From NCBI GenBank assembly GCA_027311385.1, contig DAICZA010000001.1, forward strand, positions 5,271-69,270: a stretch of 64,000 nt of DNA, read 5' to 3'. The stretch is from a bacterium. Lineage in GTDB: Bacteria; Patescibacteriota; Minisyncoccia; Phycocordibacterales; Phycocordibacteraceae. Both the position numbers and the translations under genes were made by a program. Positions 9,436 through 42,260 of this stretch are shown here, one piece after another (position 1 is the first letter of the stretch; every line of letters begins with the position of its first letter). A model generated the notes under the pieces. That model was given only the letters and a program-made list of their open reading frames with translations. It ran no database searches and was not told the DNA's origin.

Positions 9436-9507
9436 GGCCTCATCGTCTAACGGTTAGGACAGCGCCCTCTCACGGCGTAAATCGGGGTTCGATTCCCCGT
9501 GAGGTCA
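9436..9507 (+). tRNA. tRNA-Glu (CTC)
   Basis: Acceptor GGCCTCA/TGAGGTC, anticodon arm GCGCC-CTCTCAC-GGCGT, T-loop TTCGATT; CCA not encoded. Confidence 0.95.
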
Positions 9508-9727
9508 CAAAAAGACACAAAACTCGGACTGCTCCGAGTTTTGTGTCTTTTTGTGAAGCCGGAGCGATGTGCGAGCAGCAGCGAGCACCGCGAGGCGAGG
9601 TCGAACAGCACTTACGCATTTTGCGAATACGTGGAGCAAAATGCTTAGTGACTGGTGACCACACATTGCAAGGTGTACTGGTCATGTAATGACCGATAAG
9701 CGTACTCGCGGTCCCCGTGAGGTCACA
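9508..9727. repeat. Hairpin-rich segment ending in a direct repeat of the tRNA-Glu 3' end
   Basis: TCCCCGTGAGGTCACA at the tRNA end recurs at 9712-9727; att-like duplication. Confidence 0.6.
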
Positions 9728-11014: not shown

Positions 11015-12769
11015 TTACCCCGAGCTCGCCGGGGCGCCTGTCTGGGTGCTCGGGAGGCCGCGGTCGGGCGGAACCTGGTAATAGTCAATCAGGAAGTGCA
11101 CGAGGTCAAGGAATGTGCTGTCCAGCGTCTCGGACGCATATTCCACGTGTTTCGGGTTATCTGTATAGAGCAGGATGATGAACCGCGGATTATACGAGGG
11201 GAAAAACCCGACAAACGAATGGAAAAAGCGGTCGGTGTAGTAACCGCCGCCGGGCTTGGTGAGCTGTGCGGTGCCGGTCTTCGCCGCAACCGACATCGTG
11301 GGAATAATCGCCCGACCGCCCTGCAGCACCGTATCAACCATATCGGTCATCATTTGCGTCGTCTCGTGCGCCGCTGTCGCTGAGAAGATACGCGTTGTCT
11401 GGCTCCAATCAAGCGTGCGGGTGATACCGGAATCCAGACGTACGGCGCTTGCGAGGTGCGGCTGTACCATCACGCCGCCGTTGGCGATGGCGCCGAGCGC
11501 GCGAATCATCTGCACCGGCGTCTCCGCGATGCCCTGCCCGAACGACGCCGTATCGTAATCAACCTGTTCCGGCTGGGAAAGATTAGAGAGGAGCGCGTGC
11601 CCCTCGTTCGGCAAGTCAATGCCCGTCTTCTGCCCGAAGAGTTCGGTGAAGTAGGCGCGGAATTTATCCTGCCCCAACTGCGTCGCGACCCACGAGGCGC
11701 CGACGTTGAGCGACTGAAGGATGATTTGCTCCATCGGGATGACGCCGCGCGCCTTTGAATCCCAATTGCAGATATGCGCATTGTTTACAGTGATGCAGCC
11801 CGTGTCGTCATAGGTGGTCTGCGGCGTGATGACACCCGCGTCCAGCGCCGAAGTCATCGTGAGCGGCTTCATAATGGAGCCGAATTCGTGCACGTGCTCC
11901 ACAAGCGGATTGCCGAGCAGGGTCGGGTCCACGTTCTGCAGGTTATTTTCGTCGTAGGTCGGATACGAGGTAAGCGCGATGATAGCACCGGTCGCGGGAT
12001 CCATAATGATGCCGCCCGAGTCGTCGCTTGAATACCGCTGATTCACCTTTGCGATATCGTCTTGGAGCCGCGTCTGGACCTCCGGCTCAATCGTGGTCAC
12101 GACGTCGCCTTCGTGTGCGTCCTTCGCGTTCACCAGCAGACTGCCCACGTTGGAGAAAAGCTCCGCAAAGAAATTTTTATACAGCGAGTCACCCGAGCGC
12201 GAGAGCACGCCGTCGTAGGTCGCTTCAAGCCCCGTTTGGCCGACCAGCGTATCGCCCGAACCGTAGGAGACGATGCCGATAGACTGCGCCGCGAGCGAGC
12301 CGCCCGGGTAGTAGCGCCAGCTTTCGCGCAGGACCTGGACGCCGGGAATGCCGAGTGCGGCAAGCGCCTGCCCGTCCGCGTCCGAGAGGTGGTGCGCGAC
12401 TTCCACGTATACCAGGTTCTTCTTCGCGGCGGCGGCGAGGAAAGCGTCGCGTGAGAGCGTTGATGAAGCGACGGCGCTTATCGCGCTATATGCCGCCGCG
12501 GGGTCGGTGATGGTTTGCGGATTGATGGCGACGAGAAATCCGGTCGCGAGCGTTGCCGCGGAAATGAGTGTGCCATCCTTGCGAGTGAAGTAGATGGACC
12601 CGCGGTCAAAGAGCCCGCTCCCGCCGGATGCGAATTGCCGGTCGGCTTTTTGCGCGTACTCGGCGCCGTGCACAATCTGGATGAAATAGAGGCGCAGGAG
12701 GGTCAAAAGCGCAGCAAGAACGATGAACGTGAGAACAAGGCGAATGCGTGAGCGAAACTGTGCACGCAT
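11015..12769 (-). CDS. ftsI: Class B penicillin-binding protein (FtsI-like); start codon rebuilt by element E1
   Basis: GSIMK (SxxK), SLN (SxN), KTGTAQ; position in mraZ-rsmH-ftsI-murF cluster. Confidence 0.85.
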   Translation of the reverse strand: MRAQFRSRIRLVLTFIVLAALLTLLRLYFIQIVHGAEYAQKADRQFASGGSGLFDRGSIYFTRKDGTLISAATLATGFLVAINPQTITDPAAAYSAISAVASSTLSRDAFLAAAAKKNLVYVEVAHHLSDADGQALAALGIPGVQVLRESWRYYPGGSLAAQSIGIVSYGSGDTLVGQTGLEATYDGVLSRSGDSLYKNFFAELFSNVGSLLVNAKDAHEGDVVTTIEPEVQTRLQDDIAKVNQRYSSDDSGGIIMDPATGAIIALTSYPTYDENNLQNVDPTLLGNPLVEHVHEFGSIMKPLTMTSALDAGVITPQTTYDDTGCITVNNAHICNWDSKARGVIPMEQIILQSLNVGASWVATQLGQDKFRAYFTELFGQKTGIDLPNEGHALLSNLSQPEQVDYDTASFGQGIAETPVQMIRALGAIANGGVMVQPHLASAVRLDSGITRTLDWSQTTRIFSATAAHETTQMMTDMVDTVLQGGRAIIPTMSVAAKTGTAQLTKPGGGYYTDRFFHSFVGFFPSYNPRFIILLYTDNPKHVEYASETLDSTFLDLVHFLIDYYQVPPDRGLPSTQTGAPASSG

Positions 12770-12885
12770 CCCGTTAGAAATAGAACACGAACGCACTTTT
12801 TGCGCCGTACTCTATCCAGCTAGTGTTTGTAATAACTGTCGTCATGATATTTTTTGGTGCGCTGTGTTCGTGATTTCTAACGGGA
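12769..12885 (-). mobile_element. Start-codon insertion element E1 (117 bp) at ftsI
   Basis: TIR TCCCGTTAGAAAT/ATTTCTAACGGGA; 4-bp duplication (+ strand CGCA at 12765-68 and 12886-89); original ATG at 12890. Confidence 0.85.
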
Positions 12886-13178: not shown

Positions 13179-14208
13179 AAGAAAGAAGAGAAGTTAGCGT
13201 AGACGCCGATTCAGGGCGCGGTGAAGCCGTACCGCGCTCAAACACGCGCAATTTCGCGCTCCGCGCCCGGCGATTGGCGAGCAACTCCGCGCGCGACGGC
13301 GTGACGGGCTTTTTGGGATGAACGGTCCCCCACCCCGCCTCGGCCGCGTCGCGCAGGGTGTTCTTCACAATGCGGTCTTCAATGCTGTGGAACGAAATGA
13401 CTGCAAGTTTTCCGCCCGGCGCGAGCGCGGAAAAGGCGGCCGCAAGTCCTTCGCGGAGCGCACCGATTTCATCGTTGGCCGCGATACGGAGCGCCTGAAA
13501 TGTCTTCGTCGCCGGATGTATTTTCCGTTCGTGATACGAGCGCGGCGTGCCGGCGAGAACCGCGCGTACCAGGGCGTCGGTCGTGAGGATGCGTTCCTTG
13601 GCGCGCGCCGCCACAATGGCGCGCGCGATGGCGCGTGCGAAATGCTCCTCCCCGTACGTGAAGATGATATCCGCGAGGTCCGCTTCCGACGACATATTCA
13701 CAATGTCGGCCGCCGTCTCGCCGCCCTCGCCGTACGTCATCAGGAGCGGCTCGTCGTTCTGGAACGAGAAGCCGCGCGGCGTCGCGATTTGGTACCCGCT
13801 CCAACCGAGGTCAAACAGCATCTTGTTCACCTGGCCGATGCCGAGCCGCTCAAGAATGCGCGTGAGATTGCGGAAGTTGTCGTTGACCAGGTGCGCCACC
13901 GGGCGCTCGGGCCGGCGGTCGCGCGCGTAGGCCGCGCGCGCGCGGGCGACGGCGGCGGGGTCGGCGTCAATGCCGATAATCGTGCCGTCCTCGCCGAGCG
14001 CGGCGAGGAGTTCCGCGAAGTGCCCCGCTCCGCCCAAGGTCGCGTCCACGACCGTATCGCCCGGCGCGACGGAGAGCGCGGCGAGCACTTCCTGCATCAG
14101 CACCGGTTCGTGACGAGCCTCCACCCCGTTAGAGATATTCCTCTCGAGAGGTAGCAGGCGACGACGAGACGACGAACTTCCCTTTCCAAAATCTCTAACG
14201 GGGTCCAT
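13171..14208 (-). CDS. rsmH: 16S rRNA m4C1402 methyltransferase RsmH (N-terminus includes in-frame element E2)
   Basis: HEPVL, DATLGGAGH, FDLGWS, HPATKTFQALRIAAN, SFHSIEDRIVK, RARSAKLR. Confidence 0.95.
   Translation of the reverse strand: MDPVRDFGKGSSSSRRRLLPLERNISNGVEARHEPVLMQEVLAALSVAPGDTVVDATLGGAGHFAELLAALGEDGTIIGIDADPAAVARARAAYARDRRPERPVAHLVNDNFRNLTRILERLGIGQVNKMLFDLGWSGYQIATPRGFSFQNDEPLLMTYGEGGETAADIVNMSSEADLADIIFTYGEEHFARAIARAIVAARAKERILTTDALVRAVLAGTPRSYHERKIHPATKTFQALRIAANDEIGALREGLAAAFSALAPGGKLAVISFHSIEDRIVKNTLRDAAEAGWGTVHPKKPVTPSRAELLANRRARSAKLRVFERGTASPRPESASTLTSLLSYA
14124..14203 (-). mobile_element. Start-codon insertion element E2 (80 bp) at rsmH
   Basis: TIR CCCCGTTAGAGAT/ATCTCTAACGGGG; duplication TCCA at 14120-23 and 14204-07; rebuilds GTG; adds 84 nt in frame. 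Confidence 0.85.
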
Positions 14209-21887: not shown

Positions 21888-21888
<1 letters not shown>

Positions 21889-21989
21889 CCCGTTAGAAGT
21901 CTTACTCATAGTCAAAAGTTATTACCGCGAATGTTTGCGTCGAAAGACCCTCGTTAGGTACTTGCCCTGGCCGCGGACTTCTAACGGGA
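21888..21989 (-). mobile_element. Start-codon insertion element E3 (102 bp) at proS
   Basis: TIR TCCCGTTAGAAGT/ACTTCTAACGGGA; duplication CTCA at 21884-87 and 21990-93; original ATG at 21994. Confidence 0.85.
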
Positions 21990-26967: not shown

Positions 26968-27261
26968 ATGAAATCAATCCGCGACATTCTCCCCGAGTTT
27001 GAGAAAAAAGCGGCGGCGGCACCGAAGGGACGGAAGCGCCAGACCGAGCGCGGCGAGCTGATGCGGTTTTTCCTGCGCCACTTGAACTACTCCCGCAAAC
27101 AGGACGGCCTCCCGCCGATGACGATGGCGCACCTCGGCACCGTGCTGGAGCAAATCCCGACACAGGACTTGTACTATCTGAAAAGCGTCTGCAGTCAGGC
27201 GAAAAACTTCGGCAAAAAGTTCTGGTGGGAACTGGATCCGGCCAAGCACCCGCCGCGCTGA
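26968..27261 (+). CDS. Hypothetical protein
   Basis: 97-aa ORF co-oriented with murA. Confidence 0.6.
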   Translation: MKSIRDILPEFEKKAAAAPKGRKRQTERGELMRFFLRHLNYSRKQDGLPPMTMAHLGTVLEQIPTQDLYYLKSVCSQAKNFGKKFWWELDPAKHPPR

Positions 27262-27287
27262 TTTTTTGGTATACTCCGCCACATGAA

Positions 27288-27405
27288 TCCCGTTAGAGAT
27301 AGCGGGCACGGCTCGCAGGGTCGATTACCTGCCGTTATTACCAATGATAACCTCGATAGGTGTTCGCGGCGTACTTTATACGCTCGTACCCTATCTCTAA
27401 CGGGA
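27288..27405 (+). mobile_element. Start-codon insertion element E4 (118 bp) at def
   Basis: TIR TCCCGTTAGAGATAG/CTATCTCTAACGGGA; duplication TGAA at 27284-87 and 27406-09; original ATG at 27283. Confidence 0.88.
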
Positions 27406-27944
27406 TGAAAGACATCGTACAAGACGGGGCGGAGGTGTTGCGGGATATCGCGAAGCCGGTGCCGGAGGAGCTGTTCGGCTCCGCGGAACTCGCGACGCTT
27501 ATCGCGGATATGACCAAAGCACTTGATAAGGAGCTTGAGGGCGTCGCGCTCGCCGCGCCGCAGGTTGGTGTGTCCTACCGTCTCTTCATCGTGCGGAAAG
27601 ACCGCACCCTGCCTCCCCCGCCGGAAGCTACGGAAGGTGCCGCGCTACCGCCCCCGCCGCCGCCCGAAGTGGAGGTGTACATCAATCCCGAAATCGTAAA
27701 GACCTCCCGCAAACGCGCCCGCGCCGACGAAGGGTGCCTCTCGGTGCGCGGCGTCTACGGCACGACGAATCGGCACGAACGCGTCACCATCCGCGCACGC
27801 CGCCCGGACGGTTCCCGAATTGAACGCGGCGCCGGCGGCTTGATGGCGCAGATATTTGAGCACGAGATAGACCACTTAAACGGCATTCTCTTCATTGACC
27901 ACGCCGAGCACCTCATCCAGATCCACCATGCCGCAACCGCATAA
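27405..27944 (+). CDS. def: Peptide deformylase; start codon rebuilt by E4
   Basis: GVALAAPQVG, EGCLS, HEIDHLNG. Confidence 0.96.
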   Translation: MKDIVQDGAEVLRDIAKPVPEELFGSAELATLIADMTKALDKELEGVALAAPQVGVSYRLFIVRKDRTLPPPPEATEGAALPPPPPPEVEVYINPEIVKTSRKRARADEGCLSVRGVYGTTNRHERVTIRARRPDGSRIERGAGGLMAQIFEHEIDHLNGILFIDHAEHLIQIHHAATA

Positions 27945-28752
27945 GTTTGTATTTTTCGGGACACCGAAAGTTGCGAGCGAGACGCTCGCGACGCTTCTCG
28001 CGCGCGAGTTCGTTCCCGCACTCGTGGTGACGTCGCCGGACGCGCCGCAAGGGCGCGGCCTCGCACTGACTCCCTCGCCGGTTCGGGTGCTGGCCGAGGA
28101 GCACACCATCCCCGTTCTCACACCGGAGACCCTTGGTGCCGAGACGATTTCCGCCATCCGCGCGCACGGGTGCGACTACGCCGTCGTCGTCGCGTACGGA
28201 AAAATATTCCCGGAAGAACTCATTTCAGTATTCCCGAAAGGCGTCCTCAACGTGCACTATTCGCTCCTGCCGAAATACCGCGGCGCGACACCGCTTGAAG
28301 CCGCATTGCTCGCGGGCGAGCGCGAAACCGGCGTGACCGTCCAGAAAATGGCGCGGGAACTGGACGCGGGCGACATCGTCGCACAGGAAGCGACGCCTAT
28401 CGCGCCGGACGAGACCGCCCGCGAGCTGCGGCCCCGGCTCATCGCACTCGGCGCACAATTACTTGCCGACACGCTCCCCGCATTTGAGCGGGGTGACCTC
28501 GCCCCGACAGTGCAAGACGCGTCGCGCGCGACGCACTCGCACAAATTAAAAAAAGAAGACGGTCTTCTTGAACTCAGCGCGCCCGCCGAGGAGAACTGGA
28601 ACAAGTACCGCGCCTACGCCGACAGCATCGGCACGTATTTCTTTGAAAACGGGAAGCGGATGAAAATAACGAGTGCGGAATTCGCCCAGGGTGTTTTCCG
28701 CGTCCTGCGCGTCATCCCCGAAGGGAAAAAAGAAACCGCGTACCGCGCCTAG
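27928..28752 (+). CDS. fmt: Methionyl-tRNA formyltransferase
   Basis: FFGTP, VVAYG, NVHYSLLPKYRGATP, LDAGD. Confidence 0.95.
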   Translation: MPQPHKFVFFGTPKVASETLATLLAREFVPALVVTSPDAPQGRGLALTPSPVRVLAEEHTIPVLTPETLGAETISAIRAHGCDYAVVVAYGKIFPEELISVFPKGVLNVHYSLLPKYRGATPLEAALLAGERETGVTVQKMARELDAGDIVAQEATPIAPDETARELRPRLIALGAQLLADTLPAFERGDLAPTVQDASRATHSHKLKKEDGLLELSAPAEENWNKYRAYADSIGTYFFENGKRMKITSAEFAQGVFRVLRVIPEGKKETAYRA

Positions 28753-29111
28753 CGGTCGCGGCGGAGCATATTCTTAATTGCGGAGCTGCCGCGCTTCCAG
28801 AGCCGGCGCGTGCGCCCGCGCGAGCGCCGTATCTCCGCCTCCAGCTGGCTCCTGACCCGGTCGGCGGCGCTCTCGGGAGTCGGCTTCACCGCCTCGGCAT
28901 GGAATACCGTGTCATTGATGACGAGCCGTGCGACGAGACGGCACGGCTCCGACGAGCGCCCCTCCGGCGGCGCTTCCTCCACTTCTATTTCAAGCAATGC
29001 ATTCTCCTTCTCGTCGCCGAGCAGGCGCAGCGGGGCCGCGAGCTTCTCCTCTACCAATGCTTCCGTCTCAGGCGAGAGGTGATACTTCGTTGCTTTGATA
29101 GTGATGTTCAT
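28749..29111 (-). CDS. HPF/RaiA family ribosome-associated protein; start codon rebuilt by E5
   Basis: MNITIKATKYHLSPE..LVEEKL...AADRVRSQLEAEIRR pattern. Confidence 0.75.
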   Translation of the reverse strand: MNITIKATKYHLSPETEALVEEKLAAPLRLLGDEKENALLEIEVEEAPPEGRSSEPCRLVARLVINDTVFHAEAVKPTPESAADRVRSQLEAEIRRSRGRTRRLWKRGSSAIKNMLRRDR

Positions 29112-29227
29112 CCCGTTAGAGGTAGGAAATCGGAGATTTCCGTACGATTATTGATAATGGTTTTCACCCACTGTCACATAGTTTACCACAAGACCTTAAT
29201 TACCCAAGGTTTTGACCTCTAACGGGA
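29111..29227 (-). mobile_element. Start-codon insertion element E5 (117 bp) at the HPF/RaiA gene
   Basis: TIR TCCCGTTAGAGGT/ACCTCTAACGGGA; duplication TTCA at 29107-10 and 29228-31. Confidence 0.85.
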
Positions 29228-29242
29228 TTCATAGGCAGGAGG

Positions 29243-29461
29243 TCAGCTACTAATGCTTACCATCTTAGCCCGAGAATGATGTCCTGTCAGTATGCGCACT
29301 GCGCCAACCGGCTTCCCGACGCGGAGCGCGACGAGCTCGCGCACGCGGGTGTTCGCGCGGTTCTGCGCTGCCGGCTCGCGGACCGCTATGAGGAGGGTCT
29401 CGCCTTTTTCTTCCACCCTCTCGCGCTTCGCGCCCGGTGTGACGAAGATTTTTATAAACAT
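29243..29461 (-). CDS. DUF167 (YggU-like) protein; start codon rebuilt by E6
   Basis: IFVTPGAK...VREPAAQNRAN...ILTGHHSRAK. Confidence 0.85.
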   Translation of the reverse strand: MFIKIFVTPGAKRERVEEKGETLLIAVREPAAQNRANTRVRELVALRVGKPVGAVRILTGHHSRAKMVSISS

Positions 29462-29577
29462 CCCGTTAGAGACAGGGTACGGAATCTCCCTGTACGGCCG
29501 TCTTATTCGGCTTCGCACTCGACCTTATGAATATATGCATGGTGTCCATATTACCGTACTCGCTGTCTCTAACGGGA
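29461..29577 (-). mobile_element. Start-codon insertion element E6 (117 bp) at the DUF167 gene
   Basis: TIR TCCCGTTAGAGACAG/CTGTCTCTAACGGGA; duplication AACA at 29457-60 and 29578-81; original ATG (29582) overlaps the glutaredoxin TAA. Confidence 0.88.
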
Positions 29578-29581
29578 AACA

Positions 29582-29821
29582 TTACTGCGGCGCGTACTGC
29601 TCGCGCAGGTAGGCGTCAATGTCTGCCGACTCATACATCTCTACGCCGCGCTCGCTATCCACGAGGTACGGCACCTGGCGCTTGCCACCGCGGGCGACCA
29701 GCTCCGCCGCAACCGCGTCGTCCGCAATATTCTTCTCATCAAACGTGAGCCCGAGCTCCGCGCCGGTATCCAGCACCTTGTGGCAGAACGGGCATCCGGT
29801 TTTTACATACAGTGTCAGCAT
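29582..29821 (-). CDS. Glutaredoxin family protein
   Basis: CPFC, GGKRQVPYL, MYESADI. Confidence 0.9.
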   Translation of the reverse strand: MLTLYVKTGCPFCHKVLDTGAELGLTFDEKNIADDAVAAELVARGGKRQVPYLVDSERGVEMYESADIDAYLREQYAPQ

Positions 29822-41289: not shown

Positions 41290-41979
41290 CTATTTCCACT
41301 CAATGAGCTTCCCCGCTTTGAGTTCCATAGCATCGGCGCGGCGCACGTAGCGCCAGTTCCCTTTCGGCACGAGGAAATAATGCTTGCGTTCGGCGAGCGC
41401 GTCGGCGACGTTCCAGAGATCCGTCTCGGCGGTGAGCCACGCCGCGCCGATGCGGTCTGCCCCCGACGGGGCGCCGATGCGGTCTGCCCCCGACGGGGCG
41501 CCGATGCGGCGCATATCGAGCGGCTTGGAGTAGCACTCCAGTGTCTTCTCCCGCGTCTCGTTCATAAACCACTCGTGGAAATACGAGAGCGCGAGCTCGC
41601 GCGGCGTCCGGTACACGGGGTCGCGGAAGCGGAGCACGGCGTGATTCGTCTTGCTGATGGCGCCATAGCGCCCGCCGCGCGCATACAGCGCCACGACGTG
41701 GTCCACGTCGCCCTTCCCCATCCGCGACGACAGATTCATGATAATCGGCGGCTCGCCGTGGACCCAGAGCGCGGCGGCGGCAAGCAGAGCGCCCTCAATG
41801 CAGTGCGCCTTCTTCTCGCGCAGGACGCGGCGCGGGGACATATGCGTATCACCGCTCTTCTCCAGATTGAACGGGAGCGTGTCCAGGAAATCCTGAATCT
41901 TCGCCGGCGTAGAGAGCCGCGAGAGCGTCTCATACTCACCGCGATTGAATCCGGATTTGGCGCGAGTGAGATGCTTCAT
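41290..41979 (-). CDS. Conserved hypothetical protein (transglutaminase-like Cys/His); start codon rebuilt by E7
   Basis: AHCIEGALLAAAAL, DHVVALY, GAISKTNH, RDPVYRT.RELALSYFHEW. Confidence 0.75.
   Translation of the reverse strand: MKHLTRAKSGFNRGEYETLSRLSTPAKIQDFLDTLPFNLEKSGDTHMSPRRVLREKKAHCIEGALLAAAALWVHGEPPIIMNLSSRMGKGDVDHVVALYARGGRYGAISKTNHAVLRFRDPVYRTPRELALSYFHEWFMNETREKTLECYSKPLDMRRIGAPSGADRIGAPSGADRIGAAWLTAETDLWNVADALAERKHYFLVPKGNWRYVRRADAMELKAGKLIEWK
41444..41509. repeat. 27-bp in-frame tandem repeat (2.4 copies)
   Basis: GCGCCGATGCGGTCTGCCCCCGACGGG x2 + 12 nt, encoding RIGAPSGAD repeats. Confidence 0.9.
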
Positions 41980-42260
41980 CCCGTTAGAGATAGGAAACGC
42001 TTCAGTCTGTTTTTTAGATATCGTTTCCCCATCCCGGTTTTTAGATACGTCTCCCGAGCCGTTGCGTCGTTTAGATTGCGGCATGCTTCGTAATATACCA
42101 GTTCGTAGGGGCGGTGGCGTTTCGTCCACCCGCGTGGGGCTGTCTGGTGCTGGCTGAAGCGTTTCCGTAAATCATTCGTGACACCGGTGTACCAATAATC
42201 ACTTGTGAGGCTTCTGATGACGTACACATAGCACATGTTGTCATCTCTAACGGGATTCAT
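41976..42260 (-). CDS. GIY-YIG nuclease (94 aa) encoded across element E7
   Basis: YVYVIRS...WYTGVTNDLRKRFSQH...TKRHRPYELVYYE...ARETYLKTGMG; starts at host ATG, TGA overlaps rebuilt ATG. Confidence 0.9.
   Translation of the reverse strand: MNPVRDDNMCYVYVIRSLTSDYWYTGVTNDLRKRFSQHQTAPRGWTKRHRPYELVYYEACRNLNDATARETYLKTGMGKRYLKNRLKRFLSLTG
41979..42255 (-). mobile_element. Start-codon insertion element E7 (277 bp) carrying a GIY-YIG gene
   Basis: TIR TCCCGTTAGAGAT/ATCTCTAACGGGA; duplication TTCA at 41975-78 and 42256-59. Confidence 0.9.

Follow-up and report, generated by a model that had tools for sequence, protein, structure and literature searches.

The gene for peptide deformylase (def) is preceded by a 118-nt insertion, E4, in the stretch of DNA analyzed here (64 kb, hereafter the window), which belongs to a 638-kb patescibacterial genome. 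E4 is flanked by two copies of TGAA, where empty sites hold a single one, and its last base is the A of a new ATG from which the host gene is read. The features of the locus are as follows.

27267..27275, + strand: extended -10-like motif TG-n-TATACT, 7 nt 5' of the original ATG, putative promoter
27283..27408, + strand: E4 leader ORF, 41 codons (MNPVRDSGHG...TLSLTG), from the host's original ATG to a TGA
27284..27287, + strand: left TGAA of the 4-nt target duplication
27288..27405, + strand: E4 element, 118 nt, non-coding miniature copy
27288..27302, + strand: left terminal inverted repeat, 15 bp, perfect in E4
27391..27405, + strand: right terminal inverted repeat, whose last base is the A of the new ATG
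27405..27944, + strand: host peptide deformylase (def), 179 aa, assigned by PF01327 (E 1.8e-41) and orthologues
27406..27409, + strand: right TGAA of the target duplication, which completes both the new ATG and the TGA of the leader

Copies of the element at the start of def

The TGA of the E4 leader overlaps the rebuilt ATG as ATGA, and the right terminal inverted repeat (27391..27405) contains a TAA that serves as the stop for copies whose leader arrives in the +1 frame. The motif upstream of E4 suggests a leaderless transcript beginning at 27283; by eye, a similar -10-like hexamer lies ∼7 nt before ATGAA in most of the def orthologues with an empty site. A formyltransferase gene lies 3' of def. 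An ORF of 97 aa upstream of def (26968-27261) had no Pfam match, and its orthologue bears an element in two relatives (L157 and L388).

We compared 30 def loci from the genus, in which the start was located in 22 and not located in 8. Among the located starts, 20 are empty, E4 occupies one, and a different TAA-type copy, 114 nt long, occupies the last. Since two unlike copies occupy this start in relatives, the site was hit twice independently and its reading as an insertion is secure. The nearest relatives of E4 itself, L357 and L371, are both 117 nt long and exit at the TAA. E4 is one base longer, with the extra base near 27375, which indicates that its +2 exit is a fallback. E4 is predicted to fold into a long stem (-55.3 kcal/mol, z -3.45). 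A search of window positions 27000-29800, which cover E4, E5, and E6, with the Rfam 15 covariance models gave no match at E<=0.1, nor did a search of the leaders of E1, E4, and E6 against NCBIfam at the same threshold.

Exact pairs of YCCCGTTAGA and TCTAACGGGR occur seven times within the window. The six copies other than E4 are listed below.

12769..12885, - strand: E1, 117 nt; leader of 38 codons (12890-12774) that ends at the TAA of the repeat
14124..14203, - strand: E2, 80 nt; in-frame N-terminal fusion to RsmH/MraW (Pfam)
21888..21989, - strand: E3, 102 nt; 30-codon leader; the host is a class II tRNA synthetase gene
29111..29227, - strand: E5, 117 nt, subfamily A; leader stop at codon 11; the host is an HPF/S30AE-family gene
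29461..29577, - strand: E6, 117 nt; leader of 38 codons (29582-29466) that ends at the TAA of the repeat; the host is a DUF167 gene
41979..42255, - strand: E7, 277 nt, gene-bearing; GIY-YIG ORF 42260-41976, 94 codons

The initial annotation had translated all seven copies, and the lengths and stops it gave for E1 to E7 match the sequence. Its count of six interiors open nearly end to end is narrower when hand-over is defined strictly, as five of the seven copies hand over (shuffle mean 1.3, P=0.003). The leaders of E1 and E6 end on the TAA 4 nt before the new ATG, whereas that of E3 has a stop that ends 13 nt before the new start and does not hand over. Furthermore, E7 had been counted among the leader peptides but is a GIY-YIG nuclease gene (PF01541, E 5e-16) that runs from the host ATG to the TGA in the target duplication. 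Elsewhere in the window, a perfect 24-nt inverted repeat with a 4-nt loop is present at 9505-9556.

A family of miniature elements that targets start codons

The 638-kb genome contains 35 candidate pairs. A perfect 4-nt duplication is found at 30 of them, 28 of which come directly after an ATG or GTG; the oriented copies number 27. E4 is a miniature, non-autonomous copy of a start-codon-targeting mobile element, in which the TGNN of an RTGNN start is duplicated and the start is rebuilt with the last base of the element. The family has the structure of a MITE: it is short, bounded by inverted repeats, flanked by a target duplication, found opposite empty sites, and present in many copies. No mobility enzyme was found inside the miniature copies, as judged by NCBIfam on the leaders of E1, E4, and E6. 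The terminal repeats of the family span 13 bp, and positions 11-13 are complementary in 96-99% of the 100-135-nt copies through several pair types, i.e., they covary. In the right arm of copies in this size range, pairing extends past the 13 bp after a 4-nt bulge, which is most often TCCT (137 copies). A resemblance to integron attC sites was also considered, but the order of the core motifs is reversed.

At least 636 distinct copies were gathered from this genome, its relatives, a GTDB scan, and a metagenome scan. We kept the 453 that combine a perfect duplication with a start codon upstream and whose orientation is unambiguous, and dropped 183. The sets used for statistics (346 copies of 100-135 nt, 440 of <=135 nt, and 387 with a protein host) were drawn from copies among the matches listed. 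Because the search patterns demanded RTG at the right end, start targeting was judged from this genome only. Among the matches listed, records with the same pattern are mostly from Patescibacteria, with some labeled Omnitrophota and Planctomycetota.

Several copies extend this picture. Two short ones lie in an rRNA operon (G000 contig C26, 250-312 and 912-978, the latter L636), inside the 23S gene and between 23S and 5S, and similar copies of 60-63 nt are present in three relatives; the targets are not start codons alone. At L325 (G041, 1505-1613) and L583 (G067, ∼504-612), the repeat pair brackets a whole tRNA gene (Ala-CGC and Val-CAC, respectively), which, on visual inspection, sits within the anticodon loop of a tRNA-like gene. 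These two loci lack a perfect target duplication, and one end is followed by TGAA. They may tie the element family to nested tRNA genes, and the stalk of this genome's nested tRNA-Ile was found to hold no such repeat. The same host starts carry different subfamilies across species (L143, L354, L160, L335, and G000 C10 5093; also L147, L392, L457, and L338), pointing to insertion hot spots or replacement. Lastly, tandem or nested copies (L396/L397 on G190 C41, L020, and L454) were found, in which an earlier copy had rebuilt or left the start codon that a new copy then entered.

The GIY-YIG form of 271-283 nt is the one gene-bearing form found with these ends among interiors of 30-60, 85-115, and 240-270 nt, the lengths covered by the scan of other genomes. 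Its ORF starts at the host ATG or at an internal one and ends on the TGA of the duplication. The GIY-YIG form is a candidate mobilizer of the family. We considered the short copies as relics of this ORF and rejected the idea, since the nuclease frame is the TGA frame while the short copies are depleted of stops in the TAA frame, and just 3 of 440 interiors align to the 12 GIY-YIG copies. Two more small GIY-YIG genes (G000 C44 4040-4258 and C33 15176-15376) have no exact repeat copies. Like E7, UPF0213 protein BH0048 (PDB 1ZG2) is a single-domain GIY-YIG protein. The same is true of the Ssn nucleases (cd10448), which are associated with NTS/SRM repeats according to the relevant passages of the paper (PMC11893778); E7 likewise has its own inverted repeats on either side. 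The terms "start codon", "Patescibacteria", and "CPR" occur 0 times in the main text of that paper, whereas a 4-nt duplication and start targeting characterize the elements described here.

Stop codons in the frame from the old start to the new start

The expectation of the initial annotation that stops would be depleted in the frame of the upstream ATG, relative to the other frames and to shuffled controls, held up. In this genome, 12 stops were found in the ATG frame as compared to 29 and 43 in the other sense frames and 31.8 ± 5.1 in shuffles, and 10 of 19 copies were open in the ATG frame versus 3.5 ± 1.6 in shuffles. The larger samples agree, although their P values are overstated as the copies are related. 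In the size range of 100-135 nt (346 copies), the frame of the old ATG is open in 172, versus 50 and 45 for the other sense frames; dinucleotide shuffles of the same copies gave 56 ± 7, and one antisense frame reaches 99. Counting all exits among copies of <=135 nt, 229 of 440 hand over (74 ± 7 in shuffles), as do 202 of the 387 that precede ORFs of >=60 aa (73 ± 7, maximum 89). The excess persists when one copy per sequence cluster is taken (85/189 versus 37 ± 5) and across 55 clusters at 60% identity (26 open versus 10 ± 2.5). The six-of-seven ratio of the window is overstated as a genome-wide rate, which is 16 of 27 oriented copies, or 13 of 24 copies with a protein host (5.3 ± 1.9 in shuffles, P=0.0002); the latter set leaves out E7, the copy within the 23S rRNA gene, and a copy that has no host ORF. 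Taken together, these counts show statistically that stop codons are selected against between the old and the new start. Strict hand-off is absent from 211 of the 440 copies, and 185 of these 211 precede intact ORFs of >=60 aa. Such broken copies before intact hosts indicate that hand-off is not indispensable.

It had also been proposed that the right end of the element returns ribosomes to the host in all three frames. The three exits do exist; their use, however, is unequal, and each length family has one exit. Among the 440 copies, 158 exit at the TAA, 28 at ATGA, and 43 as fusions (N-terminus only). The TAA exit, with the stop 4 nt before the new start, belongs to families of 78, 105/108, and 114-123 nt, the in-frame fusion to families of 62/65 and 77/80 nt, and the ATGA overlap is the design of the ∼277-nt GIY-YIG form. 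Of the copies of 49-70 nt, 31 of 39 are in frame 0, of which 28 are open fusions, while at 71-99 nt the open copies are 11 of 19 in frame 0, 12 of 19 in +1, and 0 of 15 in +2.

At 100-135 nt, the +1, +2, and 0 classes hold 191, 90, and 65 copies, of which 143, 25, and 4 are open as compared to 34, 13, and 8.6 expected; the 4 of 65 in frame 0 fall below chance. When stops are counted in frames anchored at the right end, the TAA frame contains 329, versus 823 in the host frame and 703 in the TGA frame, and the TAA-anchored frame stays the depleted one even in classes 0 and +2. On this pattern, the 0 and +2 copies look like frameshifted +1 copies, and alignments of orthologous loci contain frameshifts of this kind. 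Open +2 copies have a TGA target in 28 of 29 cases versus 63 of 81 closed ones (P=0.022), and these fallbacks thus appear to be filtered by target.

At a rebuilt RTG, frame 0 is automatically continuous with the host if it is free of stops, and an ATGA target always offers an overlapping TGA; a passage of PMC12548453 likewise points out that the start codon gives three of the four bases of an ATGA overlap. Since two of the three exits follow automatically from rebuilding the start, the evidence must come from the interiors and their lengths. The TAA in the invariant repeat is the only special exit, and it may serve DNA recognition.

Proposed translation through the element and its alternatives

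A leaderless mode of initiation is suggested by the sequence that precedes the insertions. The old ATG is preceded at 5-9 nt by the hexamer TAnnnT in 151 of 344 copies (24-42 in shifted controls), and the new start by an SD-like motif in 10 of 346. In this genome, the hexamer is present at 14 of 27 element sites and at 116 of 380 other long-ORF starts, called crudely as the first ATG (P=0.03). Genome-wide, the same spacing before the first ATG of these 380 ORFs gives 26 in a shifted control, and SD-like motifs number 35. Copies with the -10 motif hand over in 111 of 192 cases and those without it in 110 of 235 (P=0.025). In 219 copies, every second of the set, the predicted unpaired probability of the new AUG region (-10 to +3) increases from 0.07 to 0.44 if the first 16 nt are kept unpaired. 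Failing leaders that stop at codons 6-9 make up 17 of 211, and this stretch is also conserved in sequence.

From these data, we propose the following mechanism. Many hosts would be leaderless or operon-internal, and the new start is almost without a Shine-Dalgarno sequence. In the mRNA, the paired repeats would enclose the region from -13 to +1 of the new AUG. On starting at the old AUG, a ribosome would unfold the stem and then either run on into the host frame or stop beside the new AUG and reinitiate. Opening of the stem would require the first codons only, which may explain the tolerance of later stops. E4 would derive from the TAA type by a one-base shift and would remain functional thanks to its ATGA target; its upstream stop overlaps the downstream start as in coupled gene pairs. 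It is likely, judging from the sequences, that translation of the leader unfolds the repeats and allows reinitiation at the host gene, and selection against stops probably makes the insertion largely non-polar, such that it stands before essential genes without silencing them. One observation against this reading is that copies also occur in the rRNA operon, where translation is absent.

What is selected was considered further. The initial annotation had inferred selection for leader peptides, of which the depletion of stops stands and the peptides do not, as their sequence is unconserved. Leader-frame dN/dS is 0.84 (0.69-1.05) over 30 independent pairs, the control frames give 0.87 and 0.72, and there is no third-position excess; it follows that stops, not amino acids, are selected against. 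We therefore consider it very improbable that functional small peptides are encoded by the leaders. Such peptides would fit two observations, the recurrence of motif-like stretches within the largest family and a dN/dS of 0.59 (0.39-0.95) for the central 15 codons in 16 same-host pairs, but the control frames are equal to or lower than the overall ratio, three leaders have no NCBIfam match, and the conserved stretches coincide with paired segments. (In the same 16 pairs, dS is ∼0.22 in the element interiors and ∼1.4 at synonymous sites of the adjacent host genes, which partly reflects the choice of the most similar pairs and may also reflect interior constraint or recent exchange.) A founder effect deserves more weight, though we regard it as unlikely: a few source copies would have happened to be open, for instance as captured gene fragments, their descendants would decay neutrally, and the host would begin by ordinary initiation at the rebuilt start. 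This would account for the roughly half of copies that are broken, the dN/dS near control values, and the frameshifted and stopped copies at orthologous sites. Ongoing selection was judged against open founders by pairwise tests of extant copies. At three identity cut-offs, 13, 6, and 6 stop gains were found between related copies as compared to a full neutral expectation of 41, 28, and 20, i.e., 0.2-0.3 of expectation in the ATG frame and 0.76-1.08 in control frames. Under a conservative, halved null (open ancestor, neutral since), the test is weak (P=0.05, 0.013, and 0.14), and an unhalved simulation (4 stops versus 23.9 expected) was set aside since it overstates the effect, half of the differences belonging to the other branch. 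Gaps between related copies also lack an excess of multiples of three (204, 105, and 64 for 1, 2, and 3 nt), as founders would predict. On the other hand, the excess of open copies holds over the 189 clusters and, at 60% identity, over the 55; lengths in separate families are fitted to different exits; and decay would not be expected to make open +2 copies depend on a TGA target. The comparison of extant copies thus lends modest support to ongoing selection. No link was found between hand-off and host conservation (P=0.18). Selection against stops probably acts mainly on source copies or new insertions, with weaker maintenance later.

The element could also bring its own promoter and a leaderless mini-ORF (TGnTAnnnT-N7-ATG in the TAA frame), with the host re-expressed from inside and the old ATG minor, a reading to which we assign a low probability. 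Subfamily A (E5 and loci such as L132, L143, L147, and L341) has a conserved internal TGnTAnnnT-N7-ATG, the same signature as host leaderless starts, and E5 has lost the internal ATG. The motif is followed by an open frame to the TAA in 21 of 440 copies, versus 0.4 in shuffles and 3 and 1 in other frames, with 15 of 40 in the subfamily-A cluster; in addition, an internal ATG is open to the TAA in 81 of 176 non-hand-off copies (32 ± 5). Nevertheless, the largest family seldom has the signature (5/145), the fusion families lack it, and it is not seen in E4; its carriers are not significantly more often broken upstream (P=0.10 and 0.84). An internal start would still end in coupling at the TAA and so complements the preferred reading. 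That reading, which jointly combines a start-targeting MITE, a leader frame selected against stops, one exit per length family, and hand-off by unfolding and reinitiation, is the explanation we consider best and reasonably probable. A further-reaching version is more tentative and, in our estimate, falls short of even chances: the elements would be self-spreading non-polar cassettes and translation-gated switches, in which the repeats silence the start unless a peptide-indifferent leader is translated, with families independently tuned to one of three exits and one family having its own leaderless promoter.

In engineered non-polar cassettes, the insert restarts translation of the downstream gene. 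The elements described here differ in that they are natural, self-spreading, and without a ribosome binding site. In the passages that bear on them, the enterobacterial MITEs RU/ERIC (PMC2759123) and the Rickettsia palindromic elements (RPEs; PMC10969869) are bounded by inverted repeats, have open frames, and form in-frame host fusions, as does the 62/65-nt family. "Start codon" occurs 0 times in these two main texts, and the passages found describe no targeting or rebuilding of starts. RPEs are described as encoding a conserved peptide (PMC10969869), whereas the peptide of the present elements is unconstrained and a stop next to the new start is their main exit; fusions, found here in 43 of 440 copies, lie at the N-terminus only and not within host proteins, and peptide conservation was not seen in the TAA-exit class. 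According to the passages on Neisseria REP2 and Borrelia IR-A (PMC3184786), those repeats lie immediately 5' of genes, supply an ATG, and form stem-loops, features which are shared here, and the promoter-like motif of subfamily A resembles the promoter-supplying repeats described there. REP2 and IR-A also supply a ribosome binding site, whereas our elements rarely have an SD-like motif and keep the host's old start upstream, where it opens the leader frame. The geometry of translational coupling, as set out in parts of PMC12548453 and PMC6728339, is the same: a stop within a few bases of the start or an ATGA, and structure over the downstream start. A ribosome that opens the stem and then arrives beside the new AUG would fit both coupling models in these sources. 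The known cases concern neighboring host genes, whereas here the upstream ORF comes from a mobile element and coupling is putative; PMC6728339 also cites a closely spaced gene pair that was not coupled. ORF-bearing MITEs, start-supplying repeats, and repeat-flanked GIY-YIG genes are already known; the present elements are a start-codon MITE family probably shaped to be non-polar. Among the main texts searched, which included few subscription journals, we found none that treats this family or selection on the leader frame of comparable elements.

The findings bear on how a mobile element can occupy the starts of core genes (in the window, those of def, rsmH, and a tRNA synthetase gene) and yet leave a host with a 638-kb genome alive. 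They provide sequence evidence for selection on translation per se, not on a protein product. For annotators, the lesson is that the element is the source of MNPVR... N-termini and of small ORFs in these genomes. If coupling is true, hundreds of natural stop-start junctions with and without intact leaders would make the unfolding and reinitiation models testable in a lineage in which leaderless starts seem to be common. If the elements are in fact switches, reinitiation behind selfish DNA would be the sole route to translation for dozens of core genes in each genome, and the copies would amount to several hundred natural reinitiation experiments in mostly uncultured bacteria.
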